In this document: positions 2,240 to 23,300 of the stretch, one piece after another
Position numbering within the stretch: the first letter of the stretch is position 1
How the letters are laid out: each line of letters begins with the position of its first letter
Origin: an uncultured archaeon
GTDB taxonomy: Archaea > Asgardarchaeota > Thorarchaeia > Thorarchaeales > Thorarchaeaceae
DNA: 30,821 nucleotides
Assembly (NCBI GenBank): GCA_964610875.1
Contig: CAZSWP010000043.1
Span: 1-30,821 of the forward strand
Direction: 5' to 3'
Translations under genes and position numbers: made by a program
Notes under the pieces: generated by a model
The model's input: the letters and a program-made list of their open reading frames with translations, nothing else
The model's database searches: none
Told to the model about the DNA's origin: nothing

Positions 2240-2641
2240 TTATTTGCTACTGACTCGTTTATACACCTTACCAGGTTTAATTGCCTCTGTCAACTCTGCA
2301 TATCCTCCATCAAGAATCCTCACAGACCTATAGCCTTCCTTCATCAAATAGACATAAGCAAGAGTAGACCTAAAATTGGATGAACAAAAAATTACAATGT
2401 TCTTATCTTCAGGAATCTCACTAATTCTCTGAGGAACTTCATTAACTGGGATATGCAGATATGCTATATTCTCAAAAATCTGCATTGGCATATTTAATAA
2501 GGCAAATTCCTCATTGGAACGAACATCTAAAAAGAGTACATCCTCAGTTCCAAACATATTCTCAGAATACAATTTGTGCTTGGATGTACCAAAGTATTCA
2601 AGCGTATGAAGTTTCAATATTTCTGCAAGTTCTTTTTTCAA
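2240..2641 (-). CDS. Single-domain rhodanese (sulfurtransferase)
   Basis: FLDVRSNEEF, active-site loop IFCSSNFRS, ILDGGY; start reassigned to TTG 2641 after an AAGGAGG RBS. Confidence 0.88.
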   Translation of the reverse strand: MKKELAEILKLHTLEYFGTSKHKLYSENMFGTEDVLFLDVRSNEEFALLNMPMQIFENIAYLHIPVNEVPQRISEIPEDKNIVIFCSSNFRSTLAYVYLMKEGYRSVRILDGGYAELTEAIKPGKVYKRVSSK

Positions 2642-2657
2642 TCGTTTTTCCTCCTTA

Positions 2658-3473
2658 CTAAGAAACAAAACCATAGGTGCTGATGAGGTTCAACAGTATC
2701 AACAGAGCGGCTAGCATATTACTTAGCGCAAATAGTTGCTTGAGGTTTTTTGGTCTTGATTTCAAAGCAAATCTACCTCCGAGAAATCCTCCTATCACTG
2801 CAAAAGTCATCAAAGGTAATCCTAAGAAGAGGTCGAAATGTCCCTGCAAAAAATGACCAAAGAAACCCATGAGTGCCGATACCGCAATCAACGGTGTGAC
2901 AATAGCTACACTAGATCTCATTGGTATATTGCATGCCACAACGAGCATTGGTACCAAGAATGAACCGCCTGATACACCAATCATTCCACTAAAGAAGCCT
3001 GTAAATAGTGAGATAGGCAAAACCAGCTTTAAATCGATTATAATTTCTCCATCAATTGAATCAATTCTCAATACTCCAAAATGGTTGTCCTCTAATTCTG
3101 CTTCTCGCTCAGAAAAAGGTACTATCATTATGATACCAGAAAGAACAAGCAGCCCGGCGAAAATCAACTTGAGTACAAACTCATCGAATAAATAGGAAAG
3201 AAAACCCCCTGTAAACGCTGAGACCGCAACCAGAACTCCTATGATAGATGCCAATTTCCAATTGATAGTTTTGTTTCGACCAAACACTATCATAGCCATA
3301 GATGCGGCAGCGAAGAGAATGAACTGCCCTATCGCAGCAGATTGGTGGATTGAAATTCCTGCAAAAATGAGTATCAAAACATAGAAATTTCCACCTCCTT
3401 TCCCAACCATCGTCATTGACACAGCTATTAAGAAGATCAAGAAATATAAAATAATATTCTCAATTGAAAACAT
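2658..3473 (-). CDS. TauE/SafE (TSUP) sulfite/sulfur-compound exporter
   Basis: About 8 TM helices, duplicated GxGGG motif (VGKGGGNF; IGVSGGSFLVP). Confidence 0.9.
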   Translation of the reverse strand: MFSIENIILYFLIFLIAVSMTMVGKGGGNFYVLILIFAGISIHQSAAIGQFILFAAASMAMIVFGRNKTINWKLASIIGVLVAVSAFTGGFLSYLFDEFVLKLIFAGLLVLSGIIMIVPFSEREAELEDNHFGVLRIDSIDGEIIIDLKLVLPISLFTGFFSGMIGVSGGSFLVPMLVVACNIPMRSSVAIVTPLIAVSALMGFFGHFLQGHFDLFLGLPLMTFAVIGGFLGGRFALKSRPKNLKQLFALSNMLAALLILLNLISTYGFVS

Positions 3474-3871: not shown

Positions 3872-4150
3872 TCATGATGCAATCTTAATACCTTGTTTCT
3901 CGATTTCCTTCAGGATAGCTCCTTCAATACTTGATTGTGTTGGATTGCTTCCGAGTGATCGTTCCCCGACGACAACACCTCGAAAACTGATATTGAATTG
4001 TTTGGCTAATTCACTTTCAGTTGAATACTCCTTGTAATCTATATATTCCCTATACTTCTTAACAGAACCATAGATACGCCCTAAAAAGGTGGTCTGACTG
4101 CAACCACATACTCCCACTGGCATGAACACTAAGAGTTGTACTTTCTCCAA
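3872..4150 (-). CDS. Small thioredoxin/ArsD-like protein with a GVCGC motif
   Basis: TTG start at 4150 after a GGAGGTG RBS; MEKVQLLVFMPVGVCGCS...; last gene of the operon. Confidence 0.7.
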   Translation of the reverse strand: MEKVQLLVFMPVGVCGCSQTTFLGRIYGSVKKYREYIDYKEYSTESELAKQFNISFRGVVVGERSLGSNPTQSSIEGAILKEIEKQGIKIAS

Positions 4151-4157
4151 TATATTT

Positions 4158-4565
4158 TCACCTCCATTCTTCTCTAAGTTTGTCAATTTGCTTTGCAATA
4201 TCCTTAGCAATTGTACTTACTATCTTTTTACTATCTTTAATTCTCCATCTCTCATCAGTCTTAACACATGACTCTTTCAGATAGTCTTCCACATTCATTT
4301 TTATAGAGGGTTCGCTGCTATACTTCGTTGTACCTTTTGCAGCGCAAAGCTTGCTACAACCATCAATTGTGATGGTAGGAAAGTTCTTTGCAAAATCACG
4401 CTCTCCTTGATCTCCTGCTAAGAATAGAGGGAGACATATTGTGACCGTATCATTTGGCTTGAGCTTATGTAGAACTTCAAGAGTTGCGGCACGAGAGATA
4501 TTCCCTCCATTACAAGCTTCACCACTACATGAAATCAAGCCAATTTTTGGTTTGAAAGTCATCAT
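4158..4565 (-). CDS. DGC-domain (putative zinc-binding) protein
   Basis: CSGEAC...TICL...IDGCSKLCA; ATGA overlap with the upstream gene. Confidence 0.88.
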   Translation of the reverse strand: MMTFKPKIGLISCSGEACNGGNISRAATLEVLHKLKPNDTVTICLPLFLAGDQGERDFAKNFPTITIDGCSKLCAAKGTTKYSSEPSIKMNVEDYLKESCVKTDERWRIKDSKKIVSTIAKDIAKQIDKLREEWR

Positions 4566-4954
4566 CTACCAGCTCCTGTACGATCTAAAATGAGATTCAT
4601 TATATCTCGTGCTAACAAGTGACCATTCTCGCCAATTTCTAGGATTGTTTCAGGTTTGTGTTCTTTGTTCTCAGCAAGAACTTTTGGGACAATTACCTCT
4701 AAAACAGGTTCGCCTCCTGCATATTTTACAAGCGCAGATGCACATTTTTTCGGACATCCGTCAATTGTGTAAACCTGCGATTCAGTCACAATTTGTTTTG
4801 ATTCTGCATCATCAGTCATCAATAATGGAAGACAGATTGTCACACACTCATCTGAGTATTCGCTGTCAGTTAAGAGATATGTTGCTTCTCTTGCTACAGT
4901 TCCAAATGCTTTCCCTATGCCACTACATGGAATAATTACCATCTTCATTTTCAT
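4562..4954 (-). CDS. DGC-domain (putative zinc-binding) protein
   Basis: IPCSG...TICL...IDGCPKKCA; ATGA overlap with the upstream gene. Confidence 0.88.
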   Translation of the reverse strand: MKMKMVIIPCSGIGKAFGTVAREATYLLTDSEYSDECVTICLPLLMTDDAESKQIVTESQVYTIDGCPKKCASALVKYAGGEPVLEVIVPKVLAENKEHKPETILEIGENGHLLARDIMNLILDRTGAGR

Positions 4955-5787
4955 TTCACCTTCTTTCCTATCTCTTCCTTTGCCTTTTCGATTGATTTTT
5001 CCAGATACTCAGATTCATCACTCAATAGTTCGAGTTCAGCAATATCATCCGGTTCAATTAGGTATATCCATCCTTTTTCATATGGGCTCTCATTGATGAA
5101 TTCAGGATTGTCTTCAAGTGATTTGTTGGATTCGATGATGGTTCCAGATACAGGTACTATTATTTCGATGAGGATTTTTGTTGACTCCATTGTACCAATA
5201 TCATCAAACATATCAACATGAGTACCCGGTTCGCCAAGCTCTACGAAGTACACGTCAGACATTATTTGTTGGAGGATATCAGAAACACCTACTCTTACAT
5301 ATTGGCCTTCTACTCGCACCCAGAAATCATTATCTGAATATTTGTGACCTTTGGCAACTCTAAGGGTAAACTTGTCAATCTTTTCTTCAATGTACTCAAT
5401 AGACTGCATTGATATCCCTAGATCTTGCTGTGATTCCTTTTCCATGGTTTCATCAAGAATTTGCGACAATGCGCCAACTACTTGTTTCACTTTCTTTTCA
5501 AAGTCCTCGTTTGAATTAGTAACTTCAGGTATGGGTACAATACTTGCCTTATCTTGTCCTTTTGAAGCAGCAAGTGCTGATGCACACTGTGTTCCACAAC
5601 CATCAAGACATATCACATCAGATGTTCTGAAGTCACTCATCTCGCCCGGTCGTTCTTTGTATAGAGCACCCATACTTCCTATGATGACATCATCACGAAT
5701 TCTTGCGAGTTCTTCTGCAGCAGCTCTTGACACGTTTCCACCTGGACGGTCATAACCTGCACAAGGTAAAACATATTTTTTTCTCAC
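4951..5787 (-). CDS. DGC domain fused to a glycine-cleavage H-like lipoyl carrier
   Basis: N-terminal LPCAG...LDGCGTQCA; C-terminal GcvH signatures WVRVEG..VRVGVSD, ESTK (Lys204), PVSG.I.E.N..L...PE.IN.SPY..GW; GTG start with GAGGTGA RBS. Confidence 0.88.
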   Translation of the reverse strand: MRKKYVLPCAGYDRPGGNVSRAAAEELARIRDDVIIGSMGALYKERPGEMSDFRTSDVICLDGCGTQCASALAASKGQDKASIVPIPEVTNSNEDFEKKVKQVVGALSQILDETMEKESQQDLGISMQSIEYIEEKIDKFTLRVAKGHKYSDNDFWVRVEGQYVRVGVSDILQQIMSDVYFVELGEPGTHVDMFDDIGTMESTKILIEIIVPVSGTIIESNKSLEDNPEFINESPYEKGWIYLIEPDDIAELELLSDESEYLEKSIEKAKEEIGKKVK

Positions 5788-5798
5788 TCTGAGTCACC

Positions 5799-6110
5799 TC
5801 ATTTCTTGGCTCGTTCTTCTTTGATGATCTTCAAGATGTCTGCTTTTGCAGGAAATGAGATTGCATCCTTTGGACACATTTTACTACATGCTGTACAAAA
5901 TACAACGCAATTGTATCGTTTCACAACTACAATTTTAGAAGTATCTTCTTGTGGTTCATATACCCTATGAGGACAGAACTTCAGACAATCATATTCTCCA
6001 TTACAACCATCACAGTTATCCACATCTATGAGCGGCCACCAGGGGATCTTCTCTCGATCCACGCCCATGAATGTGGTGCCAGGTCCCGACTCCTCATTCG
6101 ACATATCCAT
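5799..6110 (-). CDS. 2[4Fe-4S] ferredoxin-family protein
   Basis: CDGCNGEYDCLKFCP and CVVFCTACSKMCP motifs. Confidence 0.88.
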   Translation of the reverse strand: MDMSNEESGPGTTFMGVDREKIPWWPLIDVDNCDGCNGEYDCLKFCPHRVYEPQEDTSKIVVVKRYNCVVFCTACSKMCPKDAISFPAKADILKIIKEERAKK

Positions 6111-6465
6111 GTTTCTTTAGCTCCTCTGAAACCTTTTCCACAGCCTCATCGGTCGTTAGATCTCGTACATCAATCGGTACAAGATCCTTCTTCACATTTA
6201 GGCCCCTCTTCTCGAATGCATCACGAAAGAGCTTGTACTGCATTGCAGGAGCGCATCCACCAATGAACACTTTTTGTCCTGGTTGCAGTGTATCTTCAAG
6301 ATATGCATCTCCATCACTCTCACATAATTGAGGATGAATTATGCCATGTTTCACAGGAAGAATCATCCTCACTGTATTGATAAAATCCCAGATGTCCATC
6401 TTTTCAAAACCAGGACATTTACCAGTGCATACGCACATTATGAATGCAGGTTTGTCTGAAGTCAT
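6094..6465 (-). CDS. Stand-alone HdrA N-terminal-like (MvhD-fold) Cys-rich protein
   Basis: CVC...LC..DG...GGCAP....LFR...GLN.......R matches the HdrA N-domain pattern CHC...C..G...AACSP...FR...GLN...IRE; start ATG 6465 or TTG 6474. Confidence 0.7.
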   Translation of the reverse strand: MTSDKPAFIMCVCTGKCPGFEKMDIWDFINTVRMILPVKHGIIHPQLCESDGDAYLEDTLQPGQKVFIGGCAPAMQYKLFRDAFEKRGLNVKKDLVPIDVRDLTTDEAVEKVSEELKKHGYVE

Positions 6466-6486
6466 TAAACTCAATCCCTATACAAA

Positions 6487-6524
6487 ACATCGAACAATAT
6501 CGATATATCAATGTTTCTCTACAG
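6487..6524. promoter_or_regulatory. Tandem putative ArsR-type operators
   Basis: ACATCGAA-CAAT-ATCGATAT (6487-6506) and ATATCAAT-GTTT-CTCTACAG (6505-6524), variants of the acr3 operator. Confidence 0.6.
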
Positions 6525-7505
6525 TCATACTCGTCTTTGTTCTATTCGTGACAGCCATTTGTGAAAGCCAACTGCAGTGAGACTTTGTATGACGAATCCA
6601 ATTGCAATTGGAAATACGGTCAATGTCGCGAAAGAAGTGATTGCGACAGCCATAGCGATTGGGAGATTCTTCATCCCTGATGCATATGTCAATGCGATGC
6701 GAGTAGTTTTATTAAAGAAAGGACCAGTTATGAACCAAGCAAGGAAAAACAAGATGGGAAAGATGATTGCAGTTGAAACTAGAACGATTCCTGCTAATAA
6801 TGGGAACATAATAATGGTCGCAAATGAGCTGTTAATTGCCATGAACATAAGATACATTGCCATAATTCCTGATACTGCTGGAAAAACAGAGAGTTTCTCT
6901 TGCTTTTCCCTCTGAGTTCGAATCCTTAGAAGAATAGTTCTCTCTGCAATTGCTCTACAGAAAAGACCAAGCAGCAAGGGAATGAATAAAGTAAGTAGCA
7001 AATCAGTAAAGATCTGTTGGGTATTAATGATTACGACAGACCCAACTAACAGCCACATAAGCCATGGGATTAGAATGGGGGCTAGAAGCATTGTGCTTGC
7101 ATTGATAACAGCAGAAACAGAAATATCCCCGCTTAATAATCCTGTCCAAACTAAAGCCATTCCAGCACATGGTGTAACACCTATCAAAATCAACCCAATC
7201 ATAAGATCGGGTGAATCCTGTAGCAAGAGGTAAGCCACAGATAAGCAAATTAAGGGAGCAGTCACGAAATTAAGGGCTAACCCAAAGCCATTGCTTTTAA
7301 TATCCCTGAGTGCACCAATTAACTCTGGAGTTTGAATCATGAAGCTCATGGACCATATCATGAATCCAATGATTATAGGCGAAAAGCCCTTCATTGCAAC
7401 GCCAATTTGGGAAGTGAACAGACCAACGAAGAACCCCAGAACCATTGATAGGATAATTAGAAGAGAGTATTTTTCCTTGATTAACATTGCAGCTCGTATG
7501 AGCAT
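6525..7505 (-). CDS. Acr3-like / BASS-family secondary transporter
   Basis: About 10 TM helices; LNFVTAP, GVTPCAGMALVWT and GMKNLPIAMAVA motifs. Confidence 0.82.
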   Translation of the reverse strand: MLIRAAMLIKEKYSLLIILSMVLGFFVGLFTSQIGVAMKGFSPIIIGFMIWSMSFMIQTPELIGALRDIKSNGFGLALNFVTAPLICLSVAYLLLQDSPDLMIGLILIGVTPCAGMALVWTGLLSGDISVSAVINASTMLLAPILIPWLMWLLVGSVVIINTQQIFTDLLLTLFIPLLLGLFCRAIAERTILLRIRTQREKQEKLSVFPAVSGIMAMYLMFMAINSSFATIIMFPLLAGIVLVSTAIIFPILFFLAWFITGPFFNKTTRIALTYASGMKNLPIAMAVAITSFATLTVFPIAIGFVIQSLTAVGFHKWLSRIEQRRV

Positions 7506-7567
7506 TTGATGACCACCTTCTTGAGAATCATCAGTGTCATTTCTTTGTATTTATTCAACTACTGTTT

Positions 7568-7972
7568 TCAATCCATAGCATGGACAATCAATTCTGTAAC
7601 GTTTTCTAGTTCACCAGGGCTAATATACTCCATTATCGATTTTGGTTCATTATCTAGGTCTCTAGAGAAACTAATCTTTGCTATATCAGTATCACGAGTA
7701 ATGGTTATTGATGCTGTTGGCATATATCCAGCTTTTTCAACAAGTCGTTTTGCACATTCCTTAGGACATCCATCAACTGTGATAATCCGTTTAGCAGCCC
7801 GAGATTTCTCATGAGCCATCTCGTCACCACACGCAAGCGATGCTAGACACGAAATGCAAGCTTTTTTCAGACCAGCCTGTTTGACAGCTTCTAATGCAGC
7901 AAGCCCAGCAAGAAGCCCTGTATTTGATAAGCCTCCATAACAAGTGTAGATTAAGGATTCGTGAGTCATCAA
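7568..7972 (-). CDS. DGC-domain (putative zinc-binding) protein
   Basis: YTCYGGLSNTG...ISCL...VDGCPKECA. Confidence 0.88.
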   Translation of the reverse strand: MMTHESLIYTCYGGLSNTGLLAGLAALEAVKQAGLKKACISCLASLACGDEMAHEKSRAAKRIITVDGCPKECAKRLVEKAGYMPTASITITRDTDIAKISFSRDLDNEPKSIMEYISPGELENVTELIVHAMD

Positions 7973-8018
7973 TACTTCATCAACCTCAGAGTAGGACGTT
8001 TTATCTCTATATTTATAT

Positions 8019-8038
8019 ATATCGATGTTTCTATATAT
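8019..8038. promoter_or_regulatory. Putative ArsR-type operator next to a TATA box
   Basis: ATATCGAT-GTTT-CTATATAT; first 12 nt identical to the acr3 operator; minus-strand TATAAATA at ~8009-8016. Confidence 0.6.
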
Positions 8039-8175
8039 CTACCATTTCAACTCGTGTGTGATTATATTGTGATTTCATAGCAACATACTTCAAACTCATG
8101 GATATGCGGTCAAAGTAGACATCGAGATTTTCCAAGGATTCGCTGACTAACCCCCAGTTGCCTTGTAAGGTCAGA

Positions 8176-8700
8176 TCAATCAGCCTTGTATTTACTCAAA
8201 TCAATTGGGCACAACATTTTGAGTGGATTTGTTCTTGCATTACTATGTTTCCTCTTTTGCATTAATTTGCAGTCATCAACCTCCTTTGTTCCACTTAGAA
8301 GTCCAATTGCAAAAGCGAAACAGCCTGATTTACCACAATCAGATTTAGGTAAGAATTCACATAACTGCAGAGCATCGGCATCTTGTTTAATGAATAATAC
8401 ATCATCATCTGGAGGTCTATTGATTTTCAAGTAATCAAATGCCTGATATAATATCTCAGCAATGCTTTTCAAACAAATGATGGCTTCTTCCTTACTTGTT
8501 AGGAAGCTCATTGTGACCTTTCCACTTCCAAATATCGACGCAGTGTGCCCACACACTTTCGTGGTCACACAAGCCAACTCCTTTGAATAGTTTGCATTTC
8601 AGAAATGAAGGAATAGAAGCTCTAGTATTGGCGTGAGATCTGCATTGAACAATGCAATGACTCTTGATCTGCTATTATCTACTAGACATGGTCGGACTAA
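8176..8700 (-). pseudogene. Degraded (Fe-S)-binding protein (COG4871-like)
   Basis: Homology extends upstream of the ORF (RPCLVDNSRSRVIALFNADLTPILELLFLHF*NANYSKE) through an in-frame TGA at 8599-8601; cluster motif shortened (LPKSDCGKSGCFAFA); no clear start. Confidence 0.65.
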
Positions 8701-8796
8701 CAAATGAAGAAATAGATATAATGATATATTTATATAATTCGATATTATATGCATCCAACTTGAAATGCAATAGATTATGCAACGGGTGAAATCATC

Positions 8797-9033
8797 ATGA
8801 AAATCGAGATTCTGAGTAGGGGTTGCTCAAAGTGCGAAACACTTGAGATGATCGTTAGGGAAATAGTTGAAGAACGCGCATTGTCTGCAGAGATTGTCAA
8901 AGTGACCGATGTTAACAAAATGATCGATTATGGAGTCATGCTCACTCCCGGACTTATAGTTAATGGTGAAATCAAAGTCACTGGTCGTTTACCCTCAAGA
9001 ACCGAGATTGAGGAGATGTTAACTAGTAAATAA
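8797..9033 (+). CDS. MTH895-type small redox-active disulfide protein (thioredoxin family)
   Basis: MKIEIL..GCSKC...YGVMLTPGLIVNG...GRLP; GGTGA RBS. Confidence 0.92.
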   Translation: MKIEILSRGCSKCETLEMIVREIVEERALSAEIVKVTDVNKMIDYGVMLTPGLIVNGEIKVTGRLPSRTEIEEMLTSK

Positions 9034-9123
9034 ATCAAACACCAGAGATTCATGTTCTTGAATATTGCACTATCTATTTGTGCCGAGTCTTAAACTTGGG
9101 ATACGTATCATTTGAATTTCATG

Positions 9124-9813
9124 TTATCCAAATGGAAATATCCCAAATAATGGTAGTATCAAGACAATACCAAGAGTCACAAGCAACACACCAACAAAAA
9201 TCTGTACCTTGTGTGCTGACGCAGCCAGAGAACCAGTCATTCGAGTTCGCATCTCCTCAGATAGTAATGCAATTGCAATGTATGGTATCGAAATACCTAG
9301 TGCCATTGCGGTGAATGTCAACACTAATACTACAATTTCCGTTTGAGTACTCATGTAGAGAAGAAAACCTATCACTGCGGTTCCAGAACAAGGTGCTGCA
9401 AGCAATGAATAGAAAAGTCCAATTGTATAGACACCAAAAAGACTCCTAGGTGCTTCGGGTTGGGATTTAAAATTGAGAGATGTCAAACGAAAGAAATGTT
9501 GTAATGACTCAGATGCAGTAACTAATCCAAAGAATATTATTATGAAACCTAAAATTGCTTGAATCGTAATTTGGTTTTGAATTAGAAATAGTCCAATAAA
9601 TACTGATATCAGAGTATAAACCACTAGTGATGAAAGAATGCCTAGAACAAGCACCCCAGTTATAGCTACAGCTTTCTTTTTATTATCAGTAGATTGAAGC
9701 GAACTAATCAAAAACATGGGGAGGAGTGGGAACAGACAAGGTGAGATTGCGGCGTATAAACCGAGTGTGAATCCAAAACCGATATTCAAGAAGATTTGAA
9801 TAATACTCTGCAT
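9124..9813 (-). CDS. ccdA: CcdA/DsbD-type transmembrane disulfide reductase
   Basis: Six TM helices with two PC motifs (SPCLFP, AAPCSG). Confidence 0.87.
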   Translation of the reverse strand: MQSIIQIFLNIGFGFTLGLYAAISPCLFPLLPMFLISSLQSTDNKKKAVAITGVLVLGILSSLVVYTLISVFIGLFLIQNQITIQAILGFIIIFFGLVTASESLQHFFRLTSLNFKSQPEAPRSLFGVYTIGLFYSLLAAPCSGTAVIGFLLYMSTQTEIVVLVLTFTAMALGISIPYIAIALLSEEMRTRMTGSLAASAHKVQIFVGVLLVTLGIVLILPLFGIFPFG

Positions 9814-9825
9814 AAGATATCCACC

Positions 9826-10401
9826 TCATCTATCAAGAGTTGAAAGGGTTTCTGATATATCCTCGCTACTCCACACTCCAACATGAAGCCAACGAAAATA
9901 TCCGTCATCGTCTATGATTACCAAAGTTGGTACAGATCGAGCATTAAAATACGAACCAAACACTCCACCAGTATCTAATCCAACATACCATGAAATACTG
10001 TTATCCGATTTATAATTTTCAACTCTTTCTATTGTATCGCTTAAAACAAGACTCAAAGATATGATTTCCAAACGTCCTTCATAATCTTCGTATAGATTCT
10101 TTAGATGGGTTGTTTGTTGCTGACAGGGAATACATTCACCAGTTTGCATCAGATCAACAACAACAAAACTTCCTTGTAATGAGTGTAACTCCAAGACCTC
10201 TCCATCAGACATTAAAAGACCCCAATTAGGTGCAGCAAGTTCAAGCTCTAGGAGGTCAGTATCTTCAGTAATACTGCTTGTTGAATTGTCAGAAGTGTTG
10301 GATGAGCCAGGATCATATGTTAGAAATATTGCCGCGATGCCGACCCCGAGGATAATTAAAACACAAAAAAGTCCGGACATCAATTGCTGCCATGATTCCA
10401 T
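9826..10401 (-). CDS. Membrane-anchored TlpA/ResA-like thiol-disulfide oxidoreductase
   Basis: N-terminal TM helix, Ser/Thr linker, CIPC, cis-Pro motif SVPTLVIID. Confidence 0.85.
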   Translation of the reverse strand: MESWQQLMSGLFCVLIILGVGIAAIFLTYDPGSSNTSDNSTSSITEDTDLLELELAAPNWGLLMSDGEVLELHSLQGSFVVVDLMQTGECIPCQQQTTHLKNLYEDYEGRLEIISLSLVLSDTIERVENYKSDNSISWYVGLDTGGVFGSYFNARSVPTLVIIDDDGYFRWLHVGVWSSEDISETLSTLDR

Positions 10402-10525
10402 ATCAACACCAACCTTTTTTTAATGAGCTTCGTAAAACCGCATGTATTCATAGCTTTATTTAAATATAGTGATAATTTAAAGTGTTAGAATCACTTCTGA
10501 TTTTTCGTATCCAGTTAACATTACA

Positions 10526-11578
10526 TTAGGATAGACTAGGAGAATCGGACTCCCTCCAAAATCCTCTGATGTTGAGTTTCTTAGACAAATACACAAGCCC
10601 CAACATAACAGGTACTTCCCAGAAGAGTCCCATAGTAGTACCTAAGGCGGCAATCGAACCAACACCGTAGATAGCAATGGCGGTCGCGATTGCAATTTCA
10701 AAGTGACTGGAGGACCCAATTAGTACCGTAATCACACCCTCAGGATATGCAAGACCAGCAACCCGGGTGATGATTAGATTATATCCAACAACGATAGCAA
10801 ATCCGATTAAGAGAGGAATCGAAACAAGTAAGAGAAGATCTGGATTTTCAAGCATTACACCACCATTTAAAGAGAAGAGAACAATAAGAGTACTCAATAG
10901 AGCTATCAGTGCTATTTTTCCAACGAATGGACGATAACGGTTCTCAAACCACTCAACCCCCTTAGATTTCATCAAGTACTTTTTACTGACTATACCTATA
11001 ATGAGAGGCAGTCCGATGAATAAAAGGACTGAAACGAAAAGAAGCCATCGATCAAGGGGTATTGCGGATATCCCACTAAGGAGTGCTACAATTGGAGCAT
11101 ACAAGAACATGATAGTGGCAGTGTTAAGACTAGTATTTACGACATTTTGTTCCTGATTACCTTTAGCCAAATAGCCCCACACTAATACCATGGCTGTACA
11201 TGGACTTGAAGACAGAAGAATGATGGCGACAATGAGTTGTGGATTTCCTCCTAGAAAGATGTTTGCCAATGCAAATCCAACAATGGGAGCAATGATCCAA
11301 TTCGAGAATAATGTGAGAATGATGGGTTTGGGAGCGTTCCTAAGCTTCTGAAGTTCGGACATTTGGATGTTTAACATAGCAGGATACATCATGAAGAAAA
11401 GAAATATTCCAATCGGAATTGAAATTCCTCCCCACTGCAAGGAAGCAATTGCTTCGCTTACTCCGGGAAGGATTTGAGAGAGAATGATGCCAACTATCAT
11501 ACATACTGCTACCCATAATGGGAGATACTTTTCGAACATACTAAGATGCTTCTTTTCCTCTTTTTGGACTTCCTGCAT
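10526..11578 (-). CDS. acr3: Acr3 arsenite efflux transporter
   Basis: FEKYLPLWV, MMYPAM, NWIIAP, SPCTAMVLVW, SSHFEIAIA and WEVPVML motifs. Confidence 0.93.
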   Translation of the reverse strand: MQEVQKEEKKHLSMFEKYLPLWVAVCMIVGIILSQILPGVSEAIASLQWGGISIPIGIFLFFMMYPAMLNIQMSELQKLRNAPKPIILTLFSNWIIAPIVGFALANIFLGGNPQLIVAIILLSSSPCTAMVLVWGYLAKGNQEQNVVNTSLNTATIMFLYAPIVALLSGISAIPLDRWLLFVSVLLFIGLPLIIGIVSKKYLMKSKGVEWFENRYRPFVGKIALIALLSTLIVLFSLNGGVMLENPDLLLLVSIPLLIGFAIVVGYNLIITRVAGLAYPEGVITVLIGSSSHFEIAIATAIAIYGVGSIAALGTTMGLFWEVPVMLGLVYLSKKLNIRGFWRESDSPSLS

Positions 11579-11606: not shown

Positions 11607-11628
11607 AATATCGATGTTTATCGATATT
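11607..11628. promoter_or_regulatory. Perfect 9-4-9 inverted repeat, putative ArsR operator of acr3
   Basis: AATATCGAT-GTTT-ATCGATATT abutting a minus-strand TATAAATA (11626-11633); extra half-site ATCGATAT at 11636-11643. Confidence 0.75.
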
Positions 11629-17398: not shown

Positions 17399-20300
17399 CT
17401 AACTCTTCTTTCTCATTATCACTATGACTATTGTGACCACCACTGCCACTCCTGCAACTATGATGAAAATCAACACAATGAAGCCCCCATCGGTCGGAGT
17501 TGTGGTCGTTCCTGTAGTTGGGGTTGTTGTTGTTGGTGAGGTCATGGTAGTTGAGGGCTGTACTGTCACGAATACTTGATCAGTCACCGCATTTCCTGAA
17601 GTGTCTACTACACGAACAGTATAGTTCCATGTTCCGACATCCAAACCATCTACGGATATCTGAATAGTTTCTGTTGATGAGTTCCAATCACCTGATTCTA
17701 TGAGTGTACCATTTCTGAATACTTCATACTCCGAGGGGTGGTCATCATAAGGTGTCCATGCAATCAAGAAACCAGTTGCCCCTTCTGTATAGACGATATC
17801 CGTTGGATGATTTATGCTTGGGACTGTAGTATCTGAGATTACAAGCACCATAACTTGGTCTGAAACAGTGTTACCTCCAATGTCAACGACCAGTATCGTG
17901 AAGTTATGAGTACCGGAGCCCAAACCATCAACTGAGATAGTAATAGTTTCTTCAGTGGAGTTCCACAGCCCTGATTTCACAGTTGTACCATTCCGATAAA
18001 TTTCGAAATTGTCTGGATGAGAGTCTTCGGGATTCCATTCTATAACATTCCCAGTTTCTTCCGCATTATAACTGAAGTCATCGGGGTGGTCTATTGTCGG
18101 AGGTGTGCCATCATACACTGTCACAAAGACAATATCACTGACTGAAACACCCTTGGTGTTATTCACTATCAGAGTGTAATTATAGACTCCTAGACTAAGG
18201 CCATCTACATCAATCTCTATAGTTGAGCCATCCCAATCACCAGACTCAAGTTCTGTACCGTTTCGTAGTATTCGATATGAATCAGGGTTCGAATCTGTCG
18301 GAGTCCAAACAATACTAGATCCTGTTGAACCTTCACTGTATTCAATATCCGATGGATGATTAATCTCAGGTGCTGGGGGTTCAGTGACAGTGACCTGCAA
18401 GCTATCTGTTGAATAATAGCCAACCCTATCGTTTACCGTTATTGATATTGTGTTTATTCCAACATCCAGACCATCAACATTGATGATAATGTTAGATCCA
18501 TTCCAATCAGAATTAATCCAAGGTTCACCATTTAGAGTGACATTATAGTGGCTTGGCGTAAGTTCGCTTACCACCCATGTAACTGTGTGGCCAGTAGTAT
18601 CTACCTCGTATTCAAAGTCATCTGGAGATGAGATCTGGGGGACTGTTTCATCGTAATAGATTGTTATGTTGACCTCTCCAAGGTTGCCTACCTCATCCAT
18701 TGAACGGTGACAAAGGATGTAGCTTCTCTCATCACTCAAAGCCAGATTATAGAGCATATAATCAGTCTGACCTGAGGCAGACTCATTCTTCACAAGTGTG
18801 CCGTCAAGGTAGACCGCAATCCACAACAGGTTGGAGATATCGTCCGTGGCATCCACCCTCCAGCTTGGATTGCTATTACTCGTAGCAGTCCCATCTTCAA
18901 TTGAAGGCTCAAGAACGGGCCCTGTGTTGTCGATTATAATCACAATACTTTCAGTAAAGTCATTGACGGAGTTCACTGTGGCTGTTACATTCAACGTGTA
19001 TAGTCCGTCTGAGTGTTCAGTTGTATTGAGATCAAATTCTATCTGGCCCTCTCCCCCACTACCTATTTGTGTACCATTTAGAGTAATAATGGTCAATACT
19101 GAAATAGAACCCTCATAGTAGAAACCAGTTTCAATCTCAATAATGACAGATACATTTGCGAGTCCATTTAGTAATTCGTTGTCTTCAGGAGAGTATATGG
19201 TTATAATCACCGTGTATTCGAGGGGGTCGGTCATCAACGGTAAGTAGTCAGTTTCACCAGCACTCGTAACGCTGAACGGGTCGTCCCCAATGCCATCATC
19301 ATTTTCGTCCGTGCCGGTGTAGTCGTACCAATAGTTCCCATACTCAGTTCCATTAAGAGAGAAGTGGGTTACCTGCCACTCACCAATGAAATCATAATCT
19401 ATAAGGAAAGCATTTAGTGTGAAGGTAGCATTCTCCGTAGTTTCGATGAAATCAATCGTGACATTGTTGAATGTATTTCCTGTAAAGAGATAGTCATCAC
19501 CCACCATCGCGATGTTAGTGTTTATTGTCGAATTTGATACGGTGATATTTACTGAATCGAAGACTAGGAAGTCGTCTGTTCCATTCACTTCAAATCCTAC
19601 AACTGTGACGTTGCTGGATTTGATTACAGCTAGGGAGTATGTTTCATGACTGGATACCACTGCATCGGATATGTTAAAGTAGCAGTAGATTGGCAGTCCT
19701 TCGAGTGTGTTACTGGTGTCGATATCGAGTTTTAGGTCTGAACCATACCAAAGATCAGTGTACTCAAATGCTCCAGATATCATATCCGCAATCGAACAAT
19801 CTCTCATAATCAATGAGGGTTCATCCAGATGAATAGCCCAATCACCATTGGTTAGAATACTCTCATTCAGGTATATGTCTTCTACAGTAACTAAGTATAG
19901 TCCGTATGTGAAACTATCGAGAGTCATGTTAGATAGAGAAATGTTTCTGCAATGATCAATATAGACTCCATTACCTGAAGCACTGGTAATTGTTGTGTTT
20001 AGAATAGTGATGTTCTCGATCCATTCATATCCGTCAAGTTTGATACCATCAATGCATGATATCATTGTTTCATTTGCGATCGTAATGTCATACTGCGCAC
20101 TGCTTGATTCTGCATTCAGGACAATCGGGTAGTCTACGTTTGAATACAAGTTTCCTACTATAGTGCAATCGAAGAGGGCACCATCTGAAGAGTAGAATCC
20201 ATTGTCACAGTCATAGAATTCATTATCAATGATACTGGACCCATGCAAGTCAACAGCATTGATTGCTATGCCGCAGAATCTGAAAGTGTTTTTCTCTAGA

Positions 20301-23300
20301 AGAACAATAGCAAATGAATCTCCTATGAACCCTGTATCGCAATCATAGAACAGTGTTCCAGTTACGTTGAGCTCTCGGGTCTGGAATGTACTCTCAAGTT
20401 TAATACCCCTTGTGAAGTAGTAGAACTCACAATTTTCAATTGTGCCATTTGAAAGGTCATCGATAGTAATCCCGTTACTGCCATTTGAAGCATATGATTC
20501 TGATATCAAATACCAATCCGTTTCATCGATGGTGAAGGACTGTCCCGTATCAAACATCTCAAAATGAATATTTCTGATGGTCGCATTTTGAACATAATAG
20601 CAGAACACTCCGTTTACTGTTACATTATAGGCATTACAACCATCAACAAGTATGTTTTCTGCAGTGTGACCGCCAATTACTGTTCTGGCATTGTAGAAGT
20701 CAGAATTCAGTATATTCAGTGTTCCTGTAGCCTGATCATAATAGACACCGTCATTGCAGGTGTACACGATGATATTCTCAATTGTGACGTCTTCACCTCT
20801 TACTCTTATTGCTTCATCGACAGAATAGAACACCCAGTCACGGACTGTGATATTGCTATGAAACCCTATGTATAGTGCATATTGTGTGGCATTGTAAACA
20901 GTGCAATTCTCTAGTACAAGGTCTCTACCGCCAGATCCGGAGAGGCGGAGTCCATCTTGTATGTCTGTAAATGTAGTATTCAACAGCACAATGTTTGTTG
21001 TGAATGACTCATACCTGAAAAGACCAATCAGGTTGACACCGTATAGAGATACTGCTGAACCAGCGGCTGAGGACATCCCGAACTTGTAACTTGAGTTTAC
21101 CGCCATGAGGATTGCGCCATGAGCGGTTATGTTTCCTCCAACGTGTATGTTCACCGAATATTCGTTTAGCGAAGAGCAGTTAATCCACAACCTCGTATTG
21201 AACATCAATAGAGTGCTGTAGACTTCTGTATCTCCAGTTATTGTGTAGTTGGTGTCCAATGCAATAGTCGTCCGGTTTACAATCCAGCCAGTAGGTGTCG
21301 GCTGGTTTCCATAGACCATCATTGGGCAGTTATTAGTAATGTCTGAGATCGCTGATGAGTATGGAGTATCACCAACAAGATCCCCATCATCATCTCCACC
21401 ATCAAAGTCGAAGTAGAAGTTGCCATGAGTCCCATCATCGTATGTATTGCTTAGGGTGCCAACTTCCTCGATGTGATAAGTATTTTCAATGAAAGCATTG
21501 TAGAGGACATCATTTCCATTCGAGGCGATATATAGAGCGACACCTTCAATCTCTGCAAATATGTTGTCTTCAATCAGGTTATTATCTGAGGAGGAGTCAA
21601 GAACAAGTCCAAATGCAACACATCCAGTGAAATTATTCCTGAATATGTGACAATCAGTAGATGAGTTGAGCTGTATACCACTGCCAACATTGTCGAAGAA
21701 TAGATGGCTGATATTACAAAGTGTACAGCCCTGTATTCTTAGCCCAACGTCACAGTCGTAGAAGCTTACATTTGAAATCTCAAGTCCAATTTGATTCAGC
21801 TCCATGCCGAGTTTGGACTCATACACTCTCAGATGATTGAATGAAACAGAGGTGATATTGATTATGAATCCAGGATTTCCAGCGCCATATCCACATCTTC
21901 GAATCGATGAATTATATATGACTAAACTTGAACCAGTCCTGAGGACAAATCCATATGTTGCATCAGTCTGGTTTGCAGTGATAGTTGCTCCAGCTAATAG
22001 CCTGAGTTCTCCACCGTCCTCAATTATGATGGGCTGGACTGTTGAAGAATCGGATTGGAACTCGATTGTCGTACCAATGAGAGTACAATTCCCATCACTC
22101 CAGATCCACATATCTTCCTGAGGATATACTGTTGTATTCAGGACAATGAAACGGAACCCGATTATGAAATGAGTCTCGATAGTGTTTGGATAGTTCAGAA
22201 ATTCTAGCTGGTTATGCAACAACGGATAATTGTCATAAATTCCAGTATCTAACTGATATGACACGTCACCAATCCATGGGTTTCCTCCAGTATCATAGCT
22301 ATCACAGTATTCTGTCCGTCGTGACCCTGATGGACCCCAGAAGTTTCCGTAGGTTCCATTATCGAAAGTCATCCCGCCGGTTCGGTCTATATTGCCTTCA
22401 TCATTTTCGTATAGGAAGTTCAACCAGAACGTTGTTCCACTACACCCATCAGAATCAAATCCAAATCCAGCATTCAGAATCATAGTATTATTGTATACTC
22501 TGCTATTGCGAATACCAATGAGAGTGATACCGTTGCCACCGCATGACTCCACAATGTTGTGTGTAATATTGCTGTAGTAACTGTATTCTCCCAACTGACT
22601 TGAAATCTGCATTCCATAACTGCCAGCTGATTGTACATAATTATCCTTAACGATAGAGTAGTTGGAAAGCCCGTCTGCACGGATTCCATAACTACTACAG
22701 TTGGATATTCTATTCCCGTCAAGGACTACTTTCGACTCATAGGTGGTTACACGGATTCCTAATCCTGTTATGTTCTCAATAGTGTTTCCAGACACAACTG
22801 GATTCTTGCATTCTGAAAGGTTATCAATAATCTTTATTGCATCAGAGGCATTCACAATAGTGTTACCAACAACAGTTGCATTGTTTCCATCGACCGCAAT
22901 TGCAGTACCTCCAGCTAGACGGAAGAAGCTATTCTCTATTGTGACATTGTGTACGATTTGATTTGTGATGTCAATGCCAGTAAAGAACGTACATTCTGTG
23001 ACTTTCACGAATCTACAATTACTAGTTAGTAACCATGTCACACCATCGAATGTGCAATTATCGAAAGTAAGATAGTGACAGTTGCCTCCTGTTGAGCCGA
23101 TATCGATGAATCCTGATGAAAGGAATGATGTGTCTTCAAAGGTGATGTCATTCAATGGACCATCAAAATCGATACCACTATTGATAGTGCTTCCTGTGAA
23201 AGTACAACTACTACTATCTTCGAGTAATAACGCTCCATTGAAAGTGTTGTTGTCTGCTGTACCACTCGAAAGCCGATTCAAGTCTGTTGTCCCAATTATG

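Follow-up and report, generated by a model that had tools for sequence, protein, structure and literature searches.

A stretch of 30,821 nucleotides from an uncultured archaeon of the Thorarchaeaceae (GenBank assembly GCA_964610875.1, contig CAZSWP010000043.1, positions 1 to 30,821; hereafter, the window) encodes a protein in which a DGC domain (PF08859) is fused to an H-protein domain (GcvH) with an invariant lipoyl-type lysine. The fusion gene is the third of a five-gene cassette whose order is the same in archaea and bacteria, and the cassette lies beside arsenic-resistance genes and shares an operator word with the acr3 gene of its host. We give about an even chance to the reading that the cassette is an ArsR-controlled set of iron-sulfur (Fe-S) and thiol proteins in which ferredoxin feeds a lipoyl dithiol/disulfide relay that would serve arsenic detoxification. 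Lipoic acid is a textbook cellular target of trivalent arsenic, and we know of no arsenic-resistance system that uses a lipoyl protein. Moreover, searching the literature for ars operons with a lipoyl protein or an H-protein returned nothing relevant, and the five-gene cassette is apparently undescribed, as we found no description of it. The fusion is a first functional handle on the uncharacterised DGC family. The gene set built around it occurs in many anaerobes that are uncultured and in at least one acetogen that is in culture, Acetobacterium malicum DSM 4132, which brings the question of the cassette within bench reach. The cassette also suggests a route by which the lipoyl disulfide might be reduced in strict anaerobes with no flavoprotein involved.

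The fusion gene and its lipoyl carrier domain

The fusion gene occupies positions 4951 to 5787 on the minus strand and encodes 278 amino acids. It starts with GTG, a few bases after the motif GAGGTGA, and its stop codon overlaps the ATG of the next gene. The original prediction, made from the letters of the DNA, had proposed a fusion of DGC and GcvH, and a Pfam scan bears this out: within one open frame, residues 6 to 88 match DGC (37.0 bits; cut-off, 27) and residues 149 to 264 match GCV_H (PF01597; 111.5 bits; cut-off, 22.2). The same architecture occurs at full length in about 100 clusters of a protein collection clustered at 90% identity, of which nearly all that carry an organism name come from Thorarchaeota, with one Sifarchaeia record and one Eubacteriaceae cluster, and exhaustive HMMER searching of 50%-identity representatives added about 30 clusters of 274 to 320 amino acids in which both protein domains are matched. 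Thus, the fusion did not arise by chance. Among Asgard archaea the fusion is patchy, being present in 45 of the 301 genomes searched, as expected of an accessory module. The fused form was not found among the plasmids of PLSDB, where the matches were to ordinary gcvH only.

Alignments and an AlphaFold model place the DGC domain at residues 1 to 118 (5434 to 5787), with its namesake motif in the context L-D-G-C-G-T-Q-C. The full-length model was built on 94 orthologs and has a mean predicted local distance difference test (pLDDT) score of 85, which falls below 50 at residues 117 to 127 and marks a short flexible linker (about residues 119 to 128; 5404 to 5433). A linker had been predicted and is present, but it is shorter than was thought, for residues 96 to 117 form the C-terminal helix of the DGC domain in the model. 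The rest of the protein, residues 129 to 278 (4954 to 5403), is a GcvH domain of a type particular to these gene modules, as judged by the GCV_H match, structural superposition and phylogeny, and it carries an additional N-terminal beta-hairpin with a D-K-F motif (residues 138 to 140). Invariant across the 94-sequence alignment are Cys9, Gly63, Cys64, Cys68, Lys204 and D-K-F.

Lys204 (codon AAA, 5176 to 5178) sits in a lipoylation hairpin that reads G-T-M-E-S-T-K-I-L, and in pairwise alignments it coincides with the lipoyl lysine of the solved H-proteins of T. thermophilus, pea and E. coli (1onl, 1dxm and 3a8i), so the lipoyl lysine was rightly called intact. None of the 94 aligned orthologs or the 27 distant representatives lacks the residue, and 22 more loci keep it too; the concern that it might not be conserved in orthologs is thereby refuted. 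Moreover, the C-terminal GcvH part of the model superposes on the pea H-protein 1htp with a template modelling (TM) score of 0.94 and a root mean square deviation of 0.8 Å. The domain is acidic, with an isoelectric point (pI) of 4.4, and contains no cysteine.

The host genome (3.75 Mb, 95% complete) contains two other gcvH genes, one of them directly 3' of gcvT on contig C32 and the other on contig C14, and the fusion is therefore not the sole gcvH of its genome, a possibility that had been raised with the prediction. Against the NCBIfam models, the fusion falls short of both GcvH cut-offs (TIGR00527, 101.8 versus 115.85 bits; NF002270, 114.1 versus 117 bits) and, by a wide margin, of those for GcvH-L (TIGR03077, 59.8 versus 144.05 bits) and for GcvH_rel_desulf, a Desulfovibrio-type GcvH relative (NF045810, 41.5 versus 150 bits). 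In a maximum-likelihood tree of 87 GcvH domains, 12 fused copies and 7 copies from a shorter, split form of the module form one clade (Shimodaira-Hasegawa-like approximate likelihood ratio, 98), outside which fall 68 GcvH domains without DGC neighbours, including the gcvT-linked copy of the host. The domains in the tree were chosen for their similarity to the query, and the label "canonical" in the tree means absence of DGC neighbours only. Finally, neither gcvT nor gcvP adjoins the cassette in any of the 25 loci examined. We conclude, as far as sequence can tell, that the fusion is not a glycine-cleavage H-protein, given the separate gcvT-gcvH pair and the GcvH clade of its own.

Lipoylation of Lys204 is plausible, as the host encodes both LplA-type ligases and LipS2- and LipS1-like synthases and as a ligase gene forms part of the operon in Acidobacteriota. 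One host region (C2:122824-128750; L098) contains genes for a LipS2-like protein, a LipS1-like protein, an LplA fused to a DUF116-like Cys-rich tail, a flavin adenine dinucleotide-dependent oxidoreductase and a second LplA, and another (C31:15147-16893; L099) contains a LipS2 above its cut-off and a short LplA. The host lipoate genes match the lipS1-lpl(AB)-lipT-lipS2 arrangement of Tanabe et al. (PMC10332631), who found LipS1/S2 to be common in Asgard archaea. A gene for a lipoate-protein ligase, overlapping the last cassette gene at its end, closes the operon in four loci of Acidobacteriota, and LplA-like genes lie within a few kilobases of the cassette in 5 of 14 additional Asgard loci.

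The cassette and its arsenic neighbourhood

The five cassette genes lie together on the minus strand. The first (6094 to 6474) encodes a Cys-rich protein of 126 amino acids that resembles the N-terminal part of HdrA, matching the NCBIfam HdrA model over positions 5 to 92 (E value, 2.3e-4) and giving a weak, colinear match to residues 10 to 94 of the HdrA chain 7bkb_A. The second (5799 to 6110) encodes a ferredoxin of 103 amino acids with two 4Fe-4S motifs (Pfam Fer4_9 and Fer4_7). After the fusion come two genes for stand-alone DGC proteins, DGC2 (4562 to 4954; Pfam DGC, 55.9 bits), which has four cysteines, and DGC3 (4158 to 4565; 63.6 bits). DGC3 and its orthologs have an extra conserved cysteine in a C-S-G-E-x-C motif right after strand 1, and we note that DGC3 is about 100 residues longer in Acidobacteriota and Chloroflexota. 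A fourth DGC gene is discussed below; all four DGC genes of the host genome fall inside the window.

The order HdrA-N-like protein, ferredoxin, DGC::GcvH, DGC, DGC is the same in 25 of 25 evaluable loci, which come from Asgard archaea of several families, Acidobacteriota, Bacillota and Vulcanimicrobiota, that is, from at least four phyla and two domains. Among them are a metagenome-assembled genome (MAG) of the Eubacteriaceae, three Thorarchaeota, the cultured Bacillota member A. malicum DSM 4132, in which the fusion gene lies at L025:9983-10831, four Acidobacteriota and 14 further Asgard genomes. In the Vulcanimicrobiota locus (L021), DGC2 and DGC3 are missing from their usual place, and an ArsC gene directly follows the fusion. 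Radical SAM/SPASM genes adjoin the cassette in the Eubacteriaceae MAG (L012:6190-7206) and in a Thorarchaeota MAG (L016:9732-11267), and in Eubacteriaceae and A. malicum its neighbours include genes for a cysteine desulfurase and a PF04060 FeS protein.

In most archaeal loci, DGC3 is followed on its 3' side by a gene for a small protein with a V-C-G-C motif (in the window, 3872 to 4210, minus strand), which belongs to no Pfam or NCBIfam family. Orthologs occur in 12 of the 14 further Asgard loci and in loci L018 and L019. The protein has no BLASTP match to the Thioredoxin_3 proteins of the split module and none to any solved chain, and the thioredoxin-like clusters to which it has an Atlas feature score of 0.84 give only a weak lead as to its fold.

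The split module was found in Chloroflexota and Acidobacteriaceae and consists of ArsR, a stand-alone GcvH and two DGC genes, often followed by ACR3. Its GcvH belongs to the same clade as the fused GcvH and has the D-K-F hairpin. Genes for OsmC-like and Thioredoxin_3 proteins lie 3' of the second DGC gene, and in one locus (L037) the gene for an Lpd-type flavoprotein lies directly upstream of GcvH. None of the 7 split modules has a fused DGC, an HdrA-N-like protein or a ferredoxin, and we take this joint absence to mean that the three are inherited together as an alternative input unit. An extra DGC that travels with two Fe-S proteins would mark the point at which electrons enter the system. 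Thus, the fused DGC unit appears to occupy the place where the split variant can have Lpd; the lipoyl arm would be redox-cycled in both, and the fused DGC would be the entry of ferredoxin electrons to the arm.

Gene context strongly supports a link between the cassette and arsenic. Downstream of the cassette and on the same strand is a gene for an ArsR-family regulator (1761 to 2060; Pfam HTH_5) with E-L-C-Q-C-D in helix alpha3, and the CxC motif in alpha3 is also found in ArsR genes beside the cassette in other phyla. In various phyla the neighbours of the cassette are ArsR, ACR3, an ArsC of the LMWPc type, ArsP and ArsM; among the 14 extra Asgard loci, 12 have ArsR and 9 have ACR3. As the cassette is kept beside arsenic-resistance genes in both archaea and bacteria, it probably serves the handling of arsenic. 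In close relatives of the host, ArsR directly follows the gene for the V-C-G-C protein. In the window, a rhodanese gene and a TauE/SafE exporter gene (2240 to 3473, minus strand) are inserted between the cassette and ArsR, and near the module in loci L049, L113 and L114 there is again TauE, either with rhodanese or by itself. The cassette of Vulcanimicrobiota is flanked by genes for an AhpD-like CxxC protein whose C-terminal tail is Cys-rich and an ArsM-type methyltransferase (L021, 489-740 and 4419-5117).

The cassette is linked to arsenite efflux by a shared word in the promoter DNA. The window contains the acr3 gene (10526 to 11578, minus strand), which alone among the genes found in the genome exceeds the ACR3 cut-off (TIGR00832, 291.6 versus 282.8 bits) and counts as a bona fide arsenite efflux gene of this type; the second TIGR00832 match, an ACR3-like SBF transporter gene (6525 to 7505), reaches just 66 bits. 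Upstream of the transporter gene is that of DGC4, the fourth DGC protein of the window (7568 to 7972, minus strand; Pfam DGC, 67.4 bits). The promoter gap of the cassette (6487 to 6524) contains the operator word ATATCAATGTTT at 6505 to 6516, and the same word recurs upstream of the pair formed by DGC4 and the ACR3-like transporter (8019 to 8038) and, with a copy at 11608, within a perfect 9-4-9 palindrome between acr3 and a divergent ArsR-type gene (11607 to 11628). The 12-mer ATATCRATGTTT occurs 3 times in the window, versus 0.03 times expected, and 5 times in the whole 3.75-Mb genome, and 3 of these 5 copies are those just described, which precede the cassette, the DGC4 operon and acr3 in their promoter gaps. 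The operator word therefore connects the cassette to the one bona fide acr3 of the genome, with which it is probably co-regulated. We note that DGC4 is part of a longer string on the minus strand (6525 to 11578) that comprises acr3, thioredoxin-like/AhpC-TSA, DsbD_TM, PF04060 "FeS", DGC4 and the ACR3-like SBF transporter, and that a paralog only distantly related to the fusion (35% identity) adjoins the same Trx, DsbD, FeS and ACR3 genes in a different Thorarchaeota MAG (L020).

Cysteines and fold of the DGC domain

A canonical DGC domain has four cysteines, one after strand 1, one after strand 2 and two in a C-x3-C motif after strand 3. The three stand-alone DGC proteins of the window keep all four, and the fusion does not. 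The fusion has Cys9 (5761 to 5763), Cys64 (5596 to 5598) and Cys68 (5584 to 5586), and the second cysteine is replaced by Ser38 (5674 to 5676) in the context I-G-S-M-G; the original count of three of the four usual cysteines was thus correct. That count had been read as a site of three cysteines suited to trivalent arsenic, As(III). The loss of the second cysteine does hold for the archaeal family of the window, in which G-S stands at this site in 93 of 94 orthologs, but a further cysteine, Cys60 (5608 to 5610; V-I-C-L-D-G-C), was overlooked, and 87 of the 94 orthologs have gained it. Nor is a site of three cysteines a feature of the fusion family, most other members of which keep four: the second cysteine is present, in the context C-P-V-L-L, in the fusions of Acidobacteriota, Bacillota, Vulcanimicrobiota and other Asgard families. 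Locus L110 has serine at the second site and a C-C doublet at the first, and a third subfamily of fusions has three cysteines only, with P-S at the second site. Loss of the second cysteine is recurrent, is often compensated and in two cases leaves a serine, and the pattern therefore permits no statement yet on As(III) binding. It would suit a plastic metal or cluster site with four ligands, possibly a redox-active one, at least as well as a trigonal As(III) site.

Modelled alone, the DGC domain has a pLDDT of 93 and a small alpha/beta, flavodoxin-like fold, in which the conserved cysteines sit at the C-terminal ends of strands 1, 2 and 3. By sequence profile, DGC has no match among solved chains, and a search of the ESM Atlas with DGC returned DGC clusters only. 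Fold searches returned generic flavodoxin-like alpha/beta proteins, the best being the uncharacterised 3pu6 (VIA-align Z score, 9.4). Chains of the type of low-molecular-weight protein tyrosine phosphatase and ArsC were marginally at the top of the Foldseek results (E value, 7e-3; TM score, 0.49) and had VIA-align Z scores of about 7. Kinship with the LMWPc-type ArsC (PF01451) was considered and rejected, as hhalign assigned a probability of 0.7% to the match between DGC and the ArsC proteins encoded in the cassette loci. Moreover, the loop after Cys9 is longer than the LMWPc P-loop, and no arginine stands at the C-x5-R position. The similarity of DGC to LMWPc appears to be a weak resemblance in fold only.

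Proposed relay, competing explanations and known systems

How the cassette might work can be deduced from its parts. Lys204 would be lipoylated by the LplA/LipS machinery of the cell, and the lipoyl arm would alternate between disulfide and dithiol. In what would be an anaerobic version of a lipoyl relay, low-potential electrons would come in through the ferredoxin and the HdrA-N-like protein and pass to the arm at the N-terminal DGC domain of the fusion, so that the trio would do the job that dihydrolipoamide dehydrogenase does aerobically. The clients of the reduced arm would be the stand-alone DGC2 and DGC3 and the small thiol protein, which would act on arsenic. Their most likely action would be to supply dithiol reducing power for pentavalent arsenic or arsenic-thiol adducts, with export by ACR3 to follow. 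A bolder version is possible, if rather unlikely: the ferredoxin, the HdrA-N-like protein and the fused DGC would make up a flavin-free ferredoxin:lipoyl-disulfide reductase, which anaerobes would have in place of dihydrolipoamide dehydrogenase; the DGC domains would be disulfide reductases of a new family, with a Cys-ligated redox metal, probably Fe-S; and arsenic detoxification would have, in the cassette, a hitherto unknown branch that depends on lipoic acid and has been passed between archaea and bacteria.

Several points weigh against a ferredoxin-fed relay for arsenic. The flow of electrons from ferredoxin to the lipoyl group would follow from gene content only, and the orientation of the two domains in the full-length model is unreliable (predicted TM score, 0.56). 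Loci from related genomes are non-independent samples. In the literature we found no experiment on any DGC (PF08859) protein, and searches on the DGC domain, PF08859 or COG4273 with arsenic returned nothing relevant, "DGC" there standing for diguanylate cyclases. No ArsC is encoded in the window, the one LMWPc gene of the host is on a different contig, and the host genome yielded no ArsC of the PF03960 type; a role in the reduction of pentavalent arsenic, As(V), is thus not demanded by local context. ArsR-family regulators and CxC sites sense other soft metals too. Moreover, certain ArsR-type repressors sense sulfane sulfur (PMC12423496), and a rhodanese and a TauE exporter are encoded in the same gene string as the cassette.

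The alternative nearest to the original prediction is an As(III) shuttle or sponge, in which the reduced lipoyl arm and the DGC cysteines would bind trivalent arsenic and either sequester it or pass it to ACR3 or ArsP, the Fe-S proteins just keeping the arm reduced. Dihydrolipoyl groups are a classic high-affinity target of trivalent arsenicals, the three invariant DGC cysteines sit at the C-terminal ends of adjacent strands, one subfamily has exactly three cysteines and the cassette adjoins ACR3 or ArsP and has its operator word in common with acr3. Most fusions, however, have four cysteines and losses of the second are often compensated, which better fits a four-ligand than an open site. Moreover, the OsmC-like, Thioredoxin_3 and Lpd genes of split modules and the AhpD-like CxxC gene of one locus encode redox enzymes rather than chaperones, and to our knowledge ACR3 has no chaperone. 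We consider the shuttle unlikely. We regard as quite improbable, in turn, a carrier of sulfane sulfur, in which the lipoyl arm would carry or reduce persulfide sulfur in the manner of LbpA (PMC6067878) and the ars genes would be neighbours through a common thiol-reactive stress response. Such a carrier would fit the HdrA-like piece and the ferredoxin, which recall Hdr-type systems, the recurrent rhodanese and TauE genes downstream, the cysteine desulfurase beside the bacterial cassette and the repressors that sense sulfane sulfur (PMC12423496). It is at odds with the window, in which no HdrB, HdrC, DsrE, TusA or CCG-domain match was found among the open reading frames scanned, and with the carrier itself, since LbpA has conserved cysteines and basic surfaces (bioRxiv 10.64898/2026.10.01.755906) and the GcvH domain of the fusion is Cys-free with a pI of 4.4. 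The regulators, moreover, bear the CxC motif of As(III) and soft-metal sensors, and ArsC, ArsM, ArsP and ACR3 recur across phyla.

The redox genes of the split module raise another alternative, that the lipoyl arm feeds enzymes of the thiol peroxidase type in a defence against metalloid-induced peroxide and disulfide stress and takes no part in arsenic chemistry. Lipoyl-dependent Ohr and AhpD are known, and both the OsmC-like and Thioredoxin_3 genes 3' of the two DGC genes in split modules and the AhpD-like CxxC protein of L021 would find a place in such a defence. Yet the version in the window and all other fused versions examined lack OsmC and AhpC, the fused versions occur in strict anaerobes and have a ferredoxin-type input, and three DGC proteins would be left without a role; we hold this explanation to be very improbable. 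Finally, the fusion could be an H-protein of the ordinary kind, working in glycine cleavage or in the reductive glycine pathway and joined by chance to a zinc-binding domain. GCV_H is indeed its strongest domain match, and several database records label orthologs "glycine cleavage system H protein," but this explanation is scarcely credible, being already contradicted by the separate gcvT-gcvH pair, the separate clade, the sub-cut-off equivalog scores and the lack of a gcvT or gcvP neighbour in the 25 loci.

The ferredoxin-fed relay shares parts with several known systems and coincides with none of those compared. GcvH itself (1htp, 1onl and 3a8i) has the same fold, an E-S-x-K hairpin with the aligned lysine and an acidic surface, whereas the carrier of the fusion has the extra D-K-F hairpin, a DGC partner domain, a clade of its own and no gcvT or gcvP linkage. 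In the Lpd-DlaT-AhpD-AhpC system of M. tuberculosis and in lipoyl-dependent Ohr/OsmC, a protein-bound dihydrolipoyl arm reduces small Cys-based enzymes. The OsmC-like, Thioredoxin_3 and Lpd genes of split modules and the one AhpD-like locus are reminiscent of these relays, but where they draw on NADH and Lpd, the cassette would draw on ferredoxin and the HdrA-N-like protein, its partners are DGC proteins and its control would be by ArsR. Among arsenic-resistance systems, accessory thiol proteins include ArsC with thioredoxin or glutaredoxin and the chaperone pair ArsD-ArsA. The cassette resembles these in providing Cys-rich helpers that would be co-regulated with an arsenite pump by ArsR, and we know of no ars component with lipoic acid, DGC domains or an Hdr-like Fe-S protein.

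Two other relatives of GcvH act outside glycine cleavage. GcvH-L belongs to the SirTM/macrodomain operon, which functions in a stress response, and its structure (5a35) ranks 22nd among the structural matches to the fusion model. The fusion differs from it in scoring 59.8 bits against the 144-bit cut-off of the "not_gcvH" model and in having no sirtuin or macrodomain neighbours in the loci seen. LbpA of the sHdr system (PMC6067878 and PMC10332631) is likewise a GcvH-like lipoyl carrier beside Hdr-type Fe-S proteins, and as with sLpl(AB) and LipS1/LipS2 of that system, the cassette sometimes has a ligase gene of its own in the operon and the host encodes LipS-type synthases. The cassette, however, has only an HdrA-N-like piece and no HdrB, HdrC, DsrE or TusA; three DGC domains stand in place of the Hdr catalytic subunits, and its regulation and neighbours point to arsenic and not to sulfur oxidation. 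Moreover, its carrier lacks the cysteines and the basic surface of LbpA and, being acidic and Cys-free, is GcvH-like rather than LbpA-like by the criteria of a recent study (bioRxiv 10.64898/2026.10.01.755906).

Elsewhere in the window, also on the minus strand, is an open frame of 2723 codons (17399 to 25570).

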